A stretch of 64,000 bases of DNA from a virus (IMGVR_UViG_3300044859_002168:1-64000); one strand, 5' to 3'. Numbered from the stretch's first letter, positions 9,339 through 16,458 are shown. Notes: generated by a model from the letters alone, not told the origin. Numbers and translations are program-made.

Positions 9339-9926
9339 TTAGTGATTACAAGAAATTTGATGTTCACCCCACTTTTTAGTTGGTTTTACATTTGGGAAGT
9401 AATAACACTTCCAAACTCTTTGATTGTTAAAGTATATGTGTTTGGTAAATCCTGTTGGTACCGTGGCACCTGTTGGTAAGACATTATTTTTATTTTTGAA
9501 TTCAACACTTATCTTGATAGTTAACTTCTCAGCATCATCCCATTTTCTTTCTTGTTCTTCAAGTAATCTCCATTCCCCTCTGTTGAGGTATTGATTTTGA
9601 AGAGCTGAATTCAAATATGAGAAGGTGGTCTTTAGGTTTACCATGTTGTCAGAGAATGTTGCCGCAGGTGCCAAGTGACCCTTATCATAAATATTACTTA
9701 CATAATCAGCACCGTCAGATGTTTTGATGCCTGGCTCAATATAAAAGTCCATAGACCCCCTGTTAACGTTTGTGGGACGATTTGAGGACTCGTAAGTTAA
9801 TTCTAATGGTTGTTCTAACTTTTGAGAATAACTAACCGTGTAGATTGTTTTATCAACTTTAACATCAGGTAAAGAGTTACTTGATGATAGAAAGAATAAT
9901 GGTAATAAGATAATAAACTTTTTCAT
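9339..9926 (-). CDS. Exported DNA/RNA non-specific endonuclease (NucA/EndA family)
   Basis: Signal peptide; YDKGHLAPAA; NSALQNQYLNRGEWRLLE; VPTGFTK. Confidence 0.9.
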   Translation of the reverse strand: MKKFIILLPLFFLSSSNSLPDVKVDKTIYTVSYSQKLEQPLELTYESSNRPTNVNRGSMDFYIEPGIKTSDGADYVSNIYDKGHLAPAATFSDNMVNLKTTFSYLNSALQNQYLNRGEWRLLEEQERKWDDAEKLTIKISVEFKNKNNVLPTGATVPTGFTKHIYFNNQRVWKCYYFPNVKPTKKWGEHQISCNH

Positions 9927-9927
9927 T

Positions 9928-11127
9928 TTAATATGTTAATTTGTTTTTATTTGAGAAACCTGTTGTTATTAAATAGTAATTAGATGAACCATTTCTAACA
10001 GGTGAAGAAATTGTTATTGATTGGGAACCTGTAATTGTTGATTTTAAATTTGTGGTTCCCGTTTTAATGGTGTTCCATTCAGATGGAATAAAAAACCTGA
10101 CTGAAGGTAATGACCCCCAAGTTGATATTAATCCTGATTTTCTACCGTAAATAACAAATGCATCCGATACATTCACTCTACCATCATTATTCACATCCAT
10201 ACGGTAATATTCTCTACTCGTTAGATTTGTTTTACCTAACACAATATCTGTTGCATGATTGGCATCAGTGTTTGATAGAGATGATTTTGTTGACGGTGTT
10301 GGTATTTTAATTTGAAACTCATAGTTGTTAATATCCAATCCTGTTGAAGTAAAATTATACTGTCCATTTGAATTGGTATAAACAGTTCTGTTAAGTGAGA
10401 ATGAAGTCTGAACAGATGAAGGTGTGAATCTATATTTGGTTCCACTTGATATTGACCATACAGTTGCGTTTTTACCACCGACAGGAACAACTTTAGTACC
10501 ATCACTGTTGGTTAAACCCATCGTAGATGCGTTGTTACTACAATTAGGTTTTGATAAGACATTTATATCTATGTTATTTGATGATTCATACAACACAATT
10601 TGAAAAGTGAAGTATGTTGTTCTACAACTATAGTGTGGTGTGTTATTGAAGTTAAAAACAAATACTCTATTTGGTGAGGTACCTGTCGTATAATAGTTCA
10701 TGTTACCCGTGTTTGGAAATAAATCTTCCCAATCCGCTAATATCGCATTTTTTGGTGCTCCACTGTTTGGTAAAAATTGTGCGGTATATCCGTTTGTTTG
10801 ATTGGCAGAGAAACCTACCCAACCGTTTGAACTGGCATAAACCTGTGTGTAGTTGTTACCAAAATAAGTGAACGTGAAACCAATATTGAAAGGTCCCTGA
10901 ACACAGTCATCACAACCTGATACAGATGTTCCCCCACCATAGTTGTAGTTACCGTATGTTGGTGTGGTTATAGTATAGTTTGAAATACTTTTTGTGTGAA
11001 GTTCTACGGGTACATTAACAACCCCAACCTCATTACCGTCATAGATATATCCCGAATACGCAAACTCTTGTCCCTTTAGATTAAGGACAGAAACAAAGAG
11101 TAAACATATTGAGAATACAAACCTCAT
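9928..11127 (-). CDS. Secreted protein with nidogen/adhesin-like domain and dockerin-like module
   Basis: Signal peptide then Q; IGFTFTYFGNNY..YASSNGWVGF; MDVNNDGRVNVSDA Ca-binding loop. Confidence 0.7.
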   Translation of the reverse strand: MRFVFSICLLFVSVLNLKGQEFAYSGYIYDGNEVGVVNVPVELHTKSISNYTITTPTYGNYNYGGGTSVSGCDDCVQGPFNIGFTFTYFGNNYTQVYASSNGWVGFSANQTNGYTAQFLPNSGAPKNAILADWEDLFPNTGNMNYYTTGTSPNRVFVFNFNNTPHYSCRTTYFTFQIVLYESSNNIDINVLSKPNCSNNASTMGLTNSDGTKVVPVGGKNATVWSISSGTKYRFTPSSVQTSFSLNRTVYTNSNGQYNFTSTGLDINNYEFQIKIPTPSTKSSLSNTDANHATDIVLGKTNLTSREYYRMDVNNDGRVNVSDAFVIYGRKSGLISTWGSLPSVRFFIPSEWNTIKTGTTNLKSTITGSQSITISSPVRNGSSNYYLITTGFSNKNKLTY

Positions 11128-11579
11128 TCTACTTTAGAAATCGCGTTCTCTAATGATTTTTTAACCGCAGATGCAAATACACTTTTTTCAAATGGTAAAT
11201 TCTCATCTTTAAGTTCCGCAAATCCAGCTTTAACGGATAATTTAGCTTCACCCTCACCCTCGTAAACCACAGAATCAATAATCATCTTAGTTTTTACAAT
11301 AGTTATTTTCTTTTTAATCATGAATGGTCCGATGTTAATACCAATTGAAGGAGCTTCAATAGAAACTATTTCAACAGTTATTGGTGCACCATCTTCACAT
11401 AATGAGTATTTCTGACTCGCCAATTCTTCAGTAATTTGTTTAACACCAAAGGTGAATCTTTTTGAGGATAAGTCGGGATTCTCTGTTTTATTTTCAACGG
11501 ATTTTACTGTGTAACAATCCTGAGCCTGAAGGTTTATACCTGAAAGTATAAGACCGATTATTAAAATTATTTTTCTCAT
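11124..11579 (-). CDS. Secreted protein, short paralog of the CsgG-like protein
   Basis: Signal peptide then Q; FGVKQITEEL and GEGEA..FEKSVFASAVKKSLE align with MGVTNIVLEYL and GSGQG..FNKSTVGVSTKKALE of 13430..14158. Confidence 0.55.
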   Translation of the reverse strand: MRKIILIIGLILSGINLQAQDCYTVKSVENKTENPDLSSKRFTFGVKQITEELASQKYSLCEDGAPITVEIVSIEAPSIGINIGPFMIKKKITIVKTKMIIDSVVYEGEGEAKLSVKAGFAELKDENLPFEKSVFASAVKKSLENAISKVE

Positions 11580-14459: not shown

Positions 14460-14533
14460 TTTATTTGAATTTAATTTAGGGTTTATTGTTTTTATTGGGC
14501 TAACTTGAGGTCTCAATTTGAGACCTCAAGATT

Positions 14534-16429
14534 TTACTTAACTACTGAAGTTCTATCTGAGTACAACTCATCGTCTTTTCTGAGAATAGCAATGTATTCA
14601 CCAGCACTTAACATTCCTAAGTTTACAGTTGTAGAGTATTGACCAACAGAATATGTTCCGTTTAACACTTCCACACATTTTTTACCACCCATATCGTAAA
14701 CACCTAAGGTAACAAAACCTTTCTCGTATATCTTGAATGTAATCATGGTTTCACCCATAGTTGGGTTTGGGTAAACTCTCATCTTTTCAAAACCTGATAA
14801 CTCCGTAGGGTCTCTTTTGAAGACTTGTAAGATACCGTCTGTTGGTGTGATAATTAAATCAGTTGCAACATTGTCACCAGCAAATTTTCTTGTAACATAC
14901 AAAGGACTTTTGTTCCACTCACTCTGAGTCATTTTAGAACGAAATTCTAATGTAAATAAAGTCTCACCGTCTTTAACCAAATTTTGATTGTTTGTTGGGT
15001 CGTATCCACCCCATTCAACTTCGTTATCATTTACATTAATAAAAGAAATCCAATAAGAAGATTTCAATTCATTTTGAAGTGATACAAACTCTAACAAATC
15101 AGAATCATATTTCATTGAAAGTTGTAACGCTCCTAAGTTAATCCCTGATGTTTTTAATTTTACAGGAACTCTCACCAAGTTACCTTCATCAACACCAAGG
15201 GTTGGGAAGTTTACTTCAATGGTTCTTAGATTATTGTCGTATTGAGTTGTAACGTCAATGATACGTTTATTAGCGTTGTTTGGGTTAACAATTTCAATTG
15301 GAATCAAACGAGCTCTCTTGAATCCTGTTCCGTTAGCATCACCCGGTACCAACACATAGTATGTTACTGAGTCAGGTTGACCTGCAACAATATCAAATGT
15401 GAAGTTGGTTACACCAGGATGTGTGTTCTGTTGAGTTGTTGTTGAACCAACAATTGAATTATATTGTGATTCTGTAAAGAACTTAACATCAGGAACTGAG
15501 TTAGCCCATGTTGTAAATCTACCCGCAACTCTTGCATAAACACCGTAAACGTCAGACACGGTTACATTCTTATCACCATTAACATCTGATGAATAAAAAT
15601 CAAAACCTGTCATCGTTTGTGTACCCAAAACGTATTGGTTAATTCTTTGAGCGTCTGCGGTTGTTACCACATTACCAACACTCATCGTGTCACCCTGAAC
15701 TCTGATTCTTACGTTCCATGCACTTGTATCAATTTCAACATCGGTAAAAGCAAAACGACCGTTTACGTTTGTTTTCTGTGATGTAACTTGTGTCCAAGTA
15801 GACGATGTCTTAAGTTTTTTGTCTAAAGCAACCGCCAAATTTTTGGATACCGTTCCTGTAACGTTTACAAACTTACCTTTAAATGACATCTTCTGTGATT
15901 TCAAAACACCACCAAAGTTTGTAAGATTCAAACTGTAGTCATCACCTGCTTGTTTTGTTGCTGTCTGTGAAAAACTACTTGAACCAACAAATTTCATGTC
16001 AGTCACAGTAAAGTAAGTTGTTGCCAGTGAAGATGTGTGATTCATCTTTACATTGAACAAAGAACCTGCAGGAATTGTAAACGATGAGTTGGTTCCTGTG
16101 TAAACCAAAGTAATCGTCACATATCCTGAAGCAGGTGCATCAACATACTGAAGACTCTGTGAAAAAGATGTGTTAGTTGAGGTTACTGTGTCAACTCCAC
16201 TGAAAGCCTGATTGTCATAAAACAACCTGAACTGAACAGCGGTTATGTTCTCGGAAGAACTGTTGTAAAAGCACAATCCTACGTCAGTGTAACCCGCACT
16301 ATATTTTCCAAGTTGATACGTGGAATCTAAAGTAACGTGAACTCCTGAGGTGGTTGGTGTGGGGCACGTCTGTGCTTGTAACGTGACCCACGTGGTTAGT
16401 GCAAAAATTGCAGCAATTATTTTTTTCAT
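14534..16429 (-). CDS. T9SS cargo protein: cohesin-like, dockerin-like, cohesin-like, Por secretion CTD
   Basis: Signal peptide then Q; ITAVQFRLFYD and LGALQLSMKYDSDLLEFVS cohesin-like motifs; SSDVNGDKNVTVSD; VYPNPT..VYDMGGK..LSAGEY CTD. Confidence 0.8.
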   Translation of the reverse strand: MKKIIAAIFALTTWVTLQAQTCPTPTTSGVHVTLDSTYQLGKYSAGYTDVGLCFYNSSSENITAVQFRLFYDNQAFSGVDTVTSTNTSFSQSLQYVDAPASGYVTITLVYTGTNSSFTIPAGSLFNVKMNHTSSLATTYFTVTDMKFVGSSSFSQTATKQAGDDYSLNLTNFGGVLKSQKMSFKGKFVNVTGTVSKNLAVALDKKLKTSSTWTQVTSQKTNVNGRFAFTDVEIDTSAWNVRIRVQGDTMSVGNVVTTADAQRINQYVLGTQTMTGFDFYSSDVNGDKNVTVSDVYGVYARVAGRFTTWANSVPDVKFFTESQYNSIVGSTTTQQNTHPGVTNFTFDIVAGQPDSVTYYVLVPGDANGTGFKRARLIPIEIVNPNNANKRIIDVTTQYDNNLRTIEVNFPTLGVDEGNLVRVPVKLKTSGINLGALQLSMKYDSDLLEFVSLQNELKSSYWISFINVNDNEVEWGGYDPTNNQNLVKDGETLFTLEFRSKMTQSEWNKSPLYVTRKFAGDNVATDLIITPTDGILQVFKRDPTELSGFEKMRVYPNPTMGETMITFKIYEKGFVTLGVYDMGGKKCVEVLNGTYSVGQYSTTVNLGMLSAGEYIAILRKDDELYSDRTSVVK

Positions 16430-16450
16430 AAGAGTGTTGATTAGTGTACT

Positions 16451-16458
16451 TATAAATA
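16451..16458 (-). promoter_or_regulatory. TATTTATA putative late promoter heading the secretion cluster
   Basis: Same motif lies upstream of many leader-bearing and structural genes. Confidence 0.55.

Follow-up and report, generated by a model that had tools for sequence, protein, structure and literature searches.

The closest counterpart on record of the gene block described here, nine genes (a to i) at positions 9339 to 16916 of the virus sequence IMGVR_UViG_3300044859_002168:1-64000, is the block gp012-gp019 of Flavobacterium phage vB_FspM_immuto (NC_055915; host Flavobacterium sp. LMO8, Baltic Sea). These 64,000 nucleotides, referred to as the window, are the first 64 kb of a single 89,853-base virus record; no terminal repeat was found on that record, and the genome may be incomplete. 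The immuto block resembles that of the window in its genes for a nuclease, a dockerin-tailed lectin, a cohesin/dockerin protein, a small anchor protein, a CsgG-fold protein (64% identical), a stalked barrel protein and a paralogue of 151 amino acids (aa). It differs in that the cohesin/dockerin scaffold gene a is split there into two genes (363 and 243 aa), in that the lectin and nuclease genes precede the scaffold gene there but follow it here, and in that the small membrane protein gene d is absent there. The immuto genes are annotated as 'lectin C-type', 'cohesin domain-containing' and hypothetical proteins, with no function given, and judged from the listing of the literature indexed under immuto's name, none of it concerns the block.

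Surface-exclusion proteins of the envelope, such as T5 Llp, phi80 Cor and F-plasmid TraT, are small, exported single lipoproteins with known targets. The block resembles them as a set of mobile-element exported proteins that would change what the cell surface accepts, whereas it comprises nine genes and has no sequence relation to them; the TraT structures 9fsm/9e2v match the model of its CsgG-fold protein at Z ~7. Cellulosomes, for which solved cohesin-dockerin pairs are available (6kg8/6kgc, 4uyp), and type Va autotransporters (NalP, 1uyn; EspP) are compared below with the scaffold and barrel proteins. Clusters encoding CsgG and CsgF ('curli', type VIII secretion) have indeed been reported in pelagimyophages, as stated in the first-pass annotation of the window, which was made from the sequence alone; the available part of that report leaves their purpose unassigned and raises the idea of aggregation as 'sibling capture' (PMC7029224).

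The block in the window is very probably an exported envelope module of phages. All nine of its proteins start with a signal-peptide-like or hydrophobic segment, as read from their sequences, and because every member appears to be exported or membrane-bound they are unlikely to be parts of the virion. We further suggest, with a probability of roughly 40% for the mechanism as a whole, that this module is expressed late in infection and displays lectins on the envelope of the infected cell. A more specific version, offered tentatively, is that of a 'viral adhesome' built by aquatic Bacteroidota phages on the infected cell, in which a cohesin-dockerin scaffold, exported through the type IX secretion system (T9SS) and carrying exchangeable lectins, would act together with a phage-encoded outer-membrane apparatus (a CsgG-fold ring pair and a stalked barrel) in capturing neighbouring host cells or masking receptors. 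The features concerned are given here by position in the window; CTD denotes the C-terminal domain that serves as the T9SS sorting signal.

9339-9926, minus strand: h, 195-aa secreted DNA/RNA non-specific endonuclease (PF01223, 63.9 bits against a cut-off of 23, E 2.2e-17; phrog_14168, nuclease)
9928-11127, minus strand: g, 399-aa secreted protein with an N-terminal head and an immunoglobulin (Ig)/dockerin-like/X module in common with a (Pfam, pairwise alignment)
11124-11579, minus strand: f, secreted protein of 151 aa whose signal peptide is followed by a conserved Cys, a probable shortened paralogue of c (hhalign)
11576-13087, minus strand: e, 503 aa, with a signal peptide, a small Cys-bearing N-domain with a long helix (21-115), a disordered stalk (116-293) and a predicted barrel (299-501) (AlphaFold2 model, composition)
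13087-13428, minus strand: d, predicted 113-aa membrane protein with an acidic tail (hydropathy, alignment)
13430-14158, minus strand: c, 242-aa protein with a predicted CsgG fold (AlphaFold2 model, Foldseek, VIA, and Pfam at the level of the family)
14145-14459, minus strand: b, 104 aa, in which a hydrophobic N-terminal segment rich in Gly, Ala and Thr is followed by a low-complexity middle rich in Pro, Lys and Glu and by a conserved C-terminal ...SEDAPW (homologue alignment)
14504-14530, minus strand: perfect hairpin (12-bp stem, 3-nt loop) directly after the stop codon of a, in the 74-nt gap between a and b
14534-16429, minus strand: a, 631-aa putative secreted scaffold with a signal peptide, cohesin-like domain 1 (~54-160), an Ig/transthyretin-like domain (~185-245), a dockerin-like module (~245-305), a conserved domain X (to ~370), cohesin 2 (~401-538) and a T9SS type-A CTD (552-623) (Pfam/NCBIfam matches, family profile)
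16451-16458, minus strand: TATTTATA motif, 21 nt ahead of the ATG of a and a candidate for a phage-type (late?) promoter element
16458-16916, plus strand: i, 152-aa secreted HExxH protein, minimal and zincin-like, divergent from a (homologue alignment, synteny)

The block is conserved, phage-specific and almost confined to phages. A large protein collection holds 5200 proteins of the c family at E <= 1e-3 (269 representatives at 50% identity), and 294 viral contigs of ~5-343 kb encode a c relative. Gene order was compared in 81 loci, namely the closest 80 of these (on contigs of 4.7-344 kb) together with immuto, and the synteny counts given throughout describe that subset. By tblastn, a, b and c are each present in all 81 loci, e in 77, f in 70, d in 55 and h in 19; homologues of i occur in 53. 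The corresponding figure of 80 for g is too high, because the dockerin module of a gives cross-hits; counted by ORF (open reading frame) assignment, g-type ORFs occur in 61 of the 80 IMG/VR loci, a set in which contig ends truncate many loci. The order a, b, (d), c, (d), e, g-type, f, plus i, is constant, with a-b-c-e-f as the recurring core, so that the block is not the unconserved piece of a host operon that the first-pass annotation had allowed for. Among 50,697 phage records, c or a is matched only by the four immuto records, and megablast of the whole cluster against phage records gave no match. In 185,579 species genomes a pattern scan turned up two loci, each on a contig of a metagenome-assembled genome (MAG), and 3 of 301 sampled genomes from the family of one of these MAGs had a match.

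The scaffold protein a had been described from the sequence as carrying two cohesin-like domains, a dockerin-like calcium loop and a T9SS CTD. The CTD scores above both curated cut-offs in the window protein itself (Por_Secre_tail PF18962, 31.6 bits against 27; TIGR04183, 26.4 against 23), and it is found in 30 of 30 full-length relatives. With a signal peptide (MKKIIAAIFALTTWVTLQAQ, by inspection) at its N-terminus, a shows both features expected of a type-A cargo of the T9SS. Cohesin and dockerin were recovered at the level of the family. Pfam Cohesin matches 26 of the 30 full-length relatives (best E 9.3e-13) and, when the N-terminal domains are taken alone, 19 of 29, which suggests that the cohesin assignment is correct for the family. 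The N-domain of the window's own a reaches E 0.0011 (19.6 bits, under the cut-off of 24.1), and for the whole window protein Pfam does not list Cohesin. Dockerin_1 likewise matches the window protein below its cut-off (E 0.0019, 18.8 bits against 22.9) and 9 of 30 relatives. When the family profile was compared with solved structures, it aligned with cohesin 6kg8 at 401-538 (E 7.5e-4), with dockerin 4uyp_B at 245-304 (E 0.007) and with CTDs at 544-631; a profile search of PDB sequences with the N-domain gave no match. The weak hhalign comparison of the N-domain with cohesin 2 (E 0.049, probability 1%) is superseded by the Pfam matches obtained with the N-domain alone. Within the dockerin-like module, the second calcium loop is canonical, with D282, N284 and D293 invariant in 30 relatives, and the first, by reading of the alignment, is atypical in its 13-residue spacing.

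The same module recurs in g, as had been noticed on first reading: residues 251-393 of g are 33% identical to residues 220-366 of a (147 residues, E 2e-18). Its calcium-loop residues D311, N313 and D322 are invariant in the family, the match to Dockerin_1 is weak (E 0.03), and Pfam gives no CTD match in g. Above this constant tail g is the most variable member of the block. The heads in 35 relatives comprise Lectin_C (20), Laminin_G_3 (8), PA14 (3) and GEVED (1), and one relative of 990 aa carries a C-type lectin and a ConA-like lectin together. By these domain matches, the g family appears to be a set of exchangeable lectins, with heads swapped between phages as receptor-binding proteins are.

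That a and g assemble by cohesin-dockerin contacts is suggested by the two cohesin-like domains and the dockerin-like module of a and by the same dockerin-like module in g. Gene a is fused in 66 and split in 9 of the 75 IMG/VR loci with a-type ORFs, and it is split in immuto as well; the split yields a Coh1-Ig-dockerin protein (363-382 aa, no CTD) and a Coh2-CTD protein (243-247 aa). This natural split fits two halves that work together and must meet, and the shared module with its invariant calcium loop likewise fits parts that must meet. Complex prediction with a(21-185), a(380-545), two calcium ions and the dockerin tail of g (residues 43-160 of A5) gave scores of 0.79, 0.79 and 0.73, with the verdict 'no answer'. 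Replacing the partner reduced the score to 0.00 and 0.00; replacing the cohesin 2 chain left it at 0.83, and the score is therefore not specific to cohesin 2. The likeness to cellulosomes lies in profile-detectable cohesins and dockerins with invariant calcium-loop residues, and in the pairing of one protein that has several cohesins with a second family that has a dockerin under a variable head. In contrast to cellulosomes, the parts are encoded by a phage, the anchor is a T9SS sorting domain rather than an S-layer-homology or sortase signal, the heads are lectins rather than enzymes, the first calcium loop is atypical, and the pairing is a predicted one.

Two further members, c and f, are predicted to form a related pair. 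The AlphaFold2 monomer model of c (pLDDT 79, pTM 0.73) has CsgG as its best PDB match, with a Foldseek E of 1e-7 and TM-scores of 0.52-0.57 against 4uv2, 6l7c and 4uv3. In VIA, the model matches 4uv2 with Z 13.8 and a root-mean-square deviation (rmsd) of 3.7 over 176 aligned residues, ~3-4 Z above the next fold group (PelC, FlgT, LptE and TraT, Z 7-10), and its best BFVD match is a phage protein named CsgG. The window protein scores 19.2-19.7 bits against Pfam CsgG (PF03783), below the cut-off of 20.8, and among the 38 members of its family 14 match CsgG (best 1.9e-17) and six match LpoB at E <= 0.01. Distant sequence relatives are named CsgG/HfaB by their sources or, in bacteria, are fused to caspase or kinase domains. 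A profile search of PDB sequences with c returned chance rows only (E >= 0.28). The first-pass annotation called c a CsgG-family lipoprotein, and the fold part of that description is borne out by the model. The lipoprotein part does not extend to the family: the window protein has a lipobox-like LVGC after its hydrophobic segment, whereas the copies in immuto and in two other loci (L016, L021) have no Cys there, and many relatives are apparently not lipoproteins. Gene f had been taken for a short CsgG paralogue, and comparison of the f and c families by hhalign (97.3%, E 1.8e-11, 117 columns) makes it a probable shortened paralogue of c, superseding a weak BLASTP match between the two (E 0.025); the only PDB match of the f profile, ribosomal protein S1 (E 0.01), was taken as chance.

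A CsgG/CsgF cluster is reportedly listed also for the methylophage Melnitz. The likeness of the block to the pelagimyophage clusters is that of a phage-borne CsgG-fold protein in a small cluster of exported proteins. As far as the available part of the pelagimyophage report allows a comparison, the present block differs in that no CsgF or curlin-like gene was found in it, in that its link to CsgG is remote (the window copy lies below the Pfam cut-off), in its host phylum, and in its T9SS, cohesin, dockerin, lectin and barrel members.

Proteins e, b and d are predicted membrane or barrel proteins. In e, the N/Q/S/G-rich linker and barrel-like C-terminus seen on first reading correspond to a stalk of 178 residues (116-293), 84% of which are N, Q, S, G or T, and to a barrel of 12-13 strands in the AlphaFold2 model (pLDDT 70-84). 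The barrel matches the NalP translocator (VIA, Z 20.4, rmsd 3.4, 224 aligned residues) ahead of EspP (Z ~18), KdgM (15) and FapF (14.4). The stalk varies in sequence and length among relatives, which are 392-639 aa long, and the N-domain carries two conserved Cys. Like type Va autotransporters, e would thus have a 12-stranded barrel at its C-terminus and its other parts N-terminal to it; the resemblance is one of modelled fold only. The differences are the lack of an autotransporter family match at E <= 0.1 in Pfam, a 'passenger' of ~95 residues, and ~180 disordered residues between the only long helix (82-115) and the barrel, the placement of that helix in the pore having a pLDDT of 51-66.

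Protein b had been read as a single-transmembrane protein. It does have an N-terminal hydrophobic segment, of moderate strength only, as no 19-mer reaches 1.6 on the Kyte-Doolittle scale, and it matches nothing in Pfam, PHROGs or NCBIfam. Protein d, read as having two transmembrane segments, has one strong hydrophobic segment (33-51, 2.89) and a second, weaker one recognised by reading of the sequence. No other member of the block is as conserved as d, with 75-83% identity across distant phages against 62-70% for c and 25-70% for its neighbours overall, and where present it lies on either side of c. Its matches were limited to unnamed viral clusters in the Atlas search, none with a Pfam family, and to a weak phrog_38564 match in PHROGs; tblastn against phage records found none.

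The arrangement of the eight minus-strand genes is that of a probable operon. As had been proposed, they follow one TATTTATA motif in tight succession, lying head to tail at 9339-16429 by ORF calling; two starts were corrected by homologue alignment, that of b (14145-14459, ATG, MSEE...) and that of c (13430-14158). With these starts the intergenic distances are 74 nt (a to b), -14 (b to c), 1 (c to d), -1 (d to e), -4 (e to f), -4 (f to g) and 1 (g to h). The TATTTATA motif occurs 16 times in the window against 5.2 expected, a count reached in none of 100 shuffles, and copies lie 16-26 nt ahead of several other minus-strand gene starts, including that of the tail-fibre operon at 50595. The motif is a candidate promoter element, and since the block and the fibre operon share it, late expression of the block together with other late genes is probable. 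Scans for sigma-70 promoters (34 against 32.6) and for terminators (5 against 4.3) did no better in the window than in shuffled sequence. The hairpin between a and b is not followed by a U-run on the sense strand; it may serve attenuation, stabilise the RNA or fix how strongly a is expressed relative to the genes that follow.

Four freshwater RNA libraries from three studies contain contigs 92-100% alike over a, b, c and parts of d and e, which is compatible with transcription of the block. No contig of these four runs covers 9673-11127 (g) or 16948-17500, and a hole of this kind proves nothing. The ends of three contigs, from three studies, coincide at 16423-16424, where no loose end is listed; the site lies 5 nt into a, ~27 nt downstream of TATTTATA, and at best hints faintly at the end of a transcript close to the beginning of a.

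In the display mechanism proposed here, all products would be sent into the envelope of an infected Flavobacterium-type cell, the Sec system of the host carrying them over the inner membrane. Proteins b and d would remain in the inner membrane, e would be inserted in the outer membrane as a 12-stranded barrel with a small head on a long flexible stalk, and c and f, probably arranged in a ring, would sit against the inner face of the outer membrane. The CTD-tagged a would be passed to the host T9SS and fixed on the cell surface, where g and the dockerin of a would plug into the cohesins of a and so form a lectin-bearing scaffold whose heads bind surface glycans. The small secreted zincin i would process one of the parts, and the CsgG-fold ring pair with the stalked barrel may be the route or the anchor for the parts that have no CTD. 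The likeliest purpose would be to alter the binding properties of the dying cell's surface and of its debris: surface glycans used by phages as receptors could be masked or occupied, giving exclusion and fewer progeny lost on debris, or neighbouring host cells could be stuck to the infected cell.

Several points weigh against this mechanism. Binding, export, location, contacts and purpose are all inferred from sequence and models, and the parts that b, c, d, e, f and i would play in a display scaffold are not accounted for. In the window itself, a and c score under the Pfam cut-offs for Cohesin, Dockerin_1 and CsgG, these calls being carried by the families, and the head of the window's own g matches no Pfam or lectin family. 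Neither g nor the N-terminal half of a split a has a CTD, and their crossing of the outer membrane is unaccounted for; they may stay periplasmic, which would undo 'surface display'. The synteny counts come from the closest 80 of 294 contigs plus immuto and are valid for that subset, and the RNA-library contigs give no strand, level or timing, while DNA can occur in such libraries. In 45 of the 81 loci, finally, a GH19/PG_binding endolysin is encoded no more than 10 kb away, which points to lysis.

The last point leads to the main rival, absent from the first-pass annotation and doubtful in our judgement, in which the block is an accessory of lysis or egress that helps an endolysin to breach the outer membrane and surface layer of Bacteroidota late in infection. 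Protein d would be holin-like or regulatory, b an inner-membrane tether across the periplasm, and c, f and e outer-membrane partners, while a and g, by binding glycans of the surface or wall, would direct or set off the breach. Its rank as main rival comes from the endolysin neighbourhood, the enzyme (GH19 with PG_binding_1) lying inside the 20-kb locus and often directly flanking the block, and from the late-type motif, since the TATTTATA shared with the fibre operon suggests late expression. A small membrane protein with an acidic tail, such as d, would suit it, as would the layout of b, an N-terminal anchor followed by an extended Pro/Lys/Glu-rich segment and a conserved C-terminal tip; to our knowledge, spanins are undefined for most Bacteroidota phages, which also counts in its favour. 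In this genome, however, tblastn (E 1e-5) found no homologue of the GH19 endolysin of the relatives, and nothing lytic flanks the block; an endolysin could sit in an unseen part, as the record has no terminal repeat and the genome is possibly incomplete. Protein d is missing from 26 of the 81 loci, including immuto, and holins evolve fast, unlike d with its 75-83% conservation. None of the eight minus-strand proteins matches a holin, spanin or lysis family in PHROGs or Pfam, and no known lysis system needs seven kilobases of lectins, cohesins and a T9SS tag.

Next comes the unlikely case of a phage-built secretion channel, type VIII-like or autotransporter-like, in which c (with f) would be a CsgG-type pore or e a translocator, and the substrates would be the CTD-less g, the N-terminal half of a split a, or the N/Q/S/G-rich stalk of e, which would form an adhesive fibre. 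For such a channel speak the structural match of c to CsgG, the CsgG/HfaB names of its distant relatives, the CsgG and CsgF of pelagimyophages, the resemblance of the e barrel to autotransporter translocators and to the amyloid exporter FapF, and the need of g, which has no CTD, for some route out. Pfam found no CsgF, CsgE or CsgA/B-like member, and with NCBIfam added no CsgF, CsgE or curlin match appeared among the eight proteins; the curli system proper was rejected for this reason. The lipidated Cys is absent in many c relatives, the fold of c is common to the non-pore rings and plugs PelC, FlgT, LptE and TraT, and with 242 aa including the signal peptide, against 247-257 residues in solved CsgG chains, two membrane hairpins per c subunit are not assured. 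The e stalk is unconserved in sequence and length, unlike amyloid repeats, and CsgG passes unfolded chains, which suits lectins poorly. A host operon fragment caught by chance, or a mis-binned bacterial contig, is highly improbable. CTDs, cohesins, dockerins, CsgG/LpoB-like proteins and barrels are all common in Bacteroidota, and two c relatives lie on contigs filed under bacterial MAGs, but one of these is 254 kb long, in the size range of huge-phage contigs. The window belongs to a virus record with fibre genes, the block keeps its order on viral contigs and is present in a cultured myophage, and the scarcity of matches in the species genomes and in the 301 family genomes led us to reject the host operon. 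The reading as structural proteins of the virion was also considered; signal peptides, a CTD, and members of membrane and barrel type led to its rejection.

No phage system with this combination was found in the full-text literature, a search that left most subscription journals outside, and this agrees with the first-pass annotation. The block is abundant, strictly ordered and nearly phage-confined, with no published description found, and it brings together the type IX secretion of Bacteroidota, cohesin-dockerin assembly and swappable lectins, for none of which the searchable literature showed an earlier link to phage biology. If the lectin-display reading is correct, the phages of a major phylum of aquatic and gut bacteria use a modular scaffold to reshape the surface of their hosts, which would bear on superinfection exclusion, aggregation and particle formation in lakes and seas, and would offer a ready-made surface-display system for Flavobacteria. 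If real, the adhesome would represent virus-directed cell-surface engineering of a new class, and in it a cohesin-dockerin system would for the first time have a viral function. Because the block occurs in the cultured phage immuto, it can be tested now.

Two genes at the edges of the block differ in their standing. The nuclease h had been listed as an exported member; its PF01223 match lies over the cut-off, and with presence in 19 of 81 loci it is an occasional neighbour outside the core. The divergent gene i, in contrast, is a ninth member of the block, beyond the coordinates given on first reading, with homologues in 53 of the loci, either divergent upstream of a or co-oriented after f. 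Its residues H95, E96 and H99 are invariant in 27 relatives, its Pfam matches are weak and of zincin type (SprT-like in 4 of 27 relatives), and a profile search of PDB sequences gave no match. In 22 of the 81 loci the block is followed by a second small outer-membrane barrel of ~240 aa with DUF481 (for example L028 14806-15549 and L009 14239-14952); the window has none.

Elsewhere in the window, there are three consecutive fibre genes at 40333-50595 (minus strand), each product, of ~1100-1190 aa, combining collagen triple-helix repeats with an S74 chaperone domain at its C-terminus, and the rise in GC content to 0.46-0.54 over this interval is due to these collagen-like genes. At 21635-25128 (minus strand) a UDP-galactopyranose mutase homologue (phrog_9677, E 5e-135; 59% identical to Streptococcus phage glf) is followed by a glycosyltransferase-like gene; the phage therefore also has sugar-modifying genes, which could act on the same surface. 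A PcfJ-like protein (E 5.9e-6) is encoded at 51612-53255 (minus strand). Outside the window, the gene at 80154-82145 of the record (minus strand) encodes 663 aa including an SprB repeat (E 9e-8), which is a motif known from the gliding adhesins of Flavobacterium. As to habitat, fifteen lake-water DNA runs hold 97-99% of the sampled words of the sequence, and some of them may be the source of this DNA.

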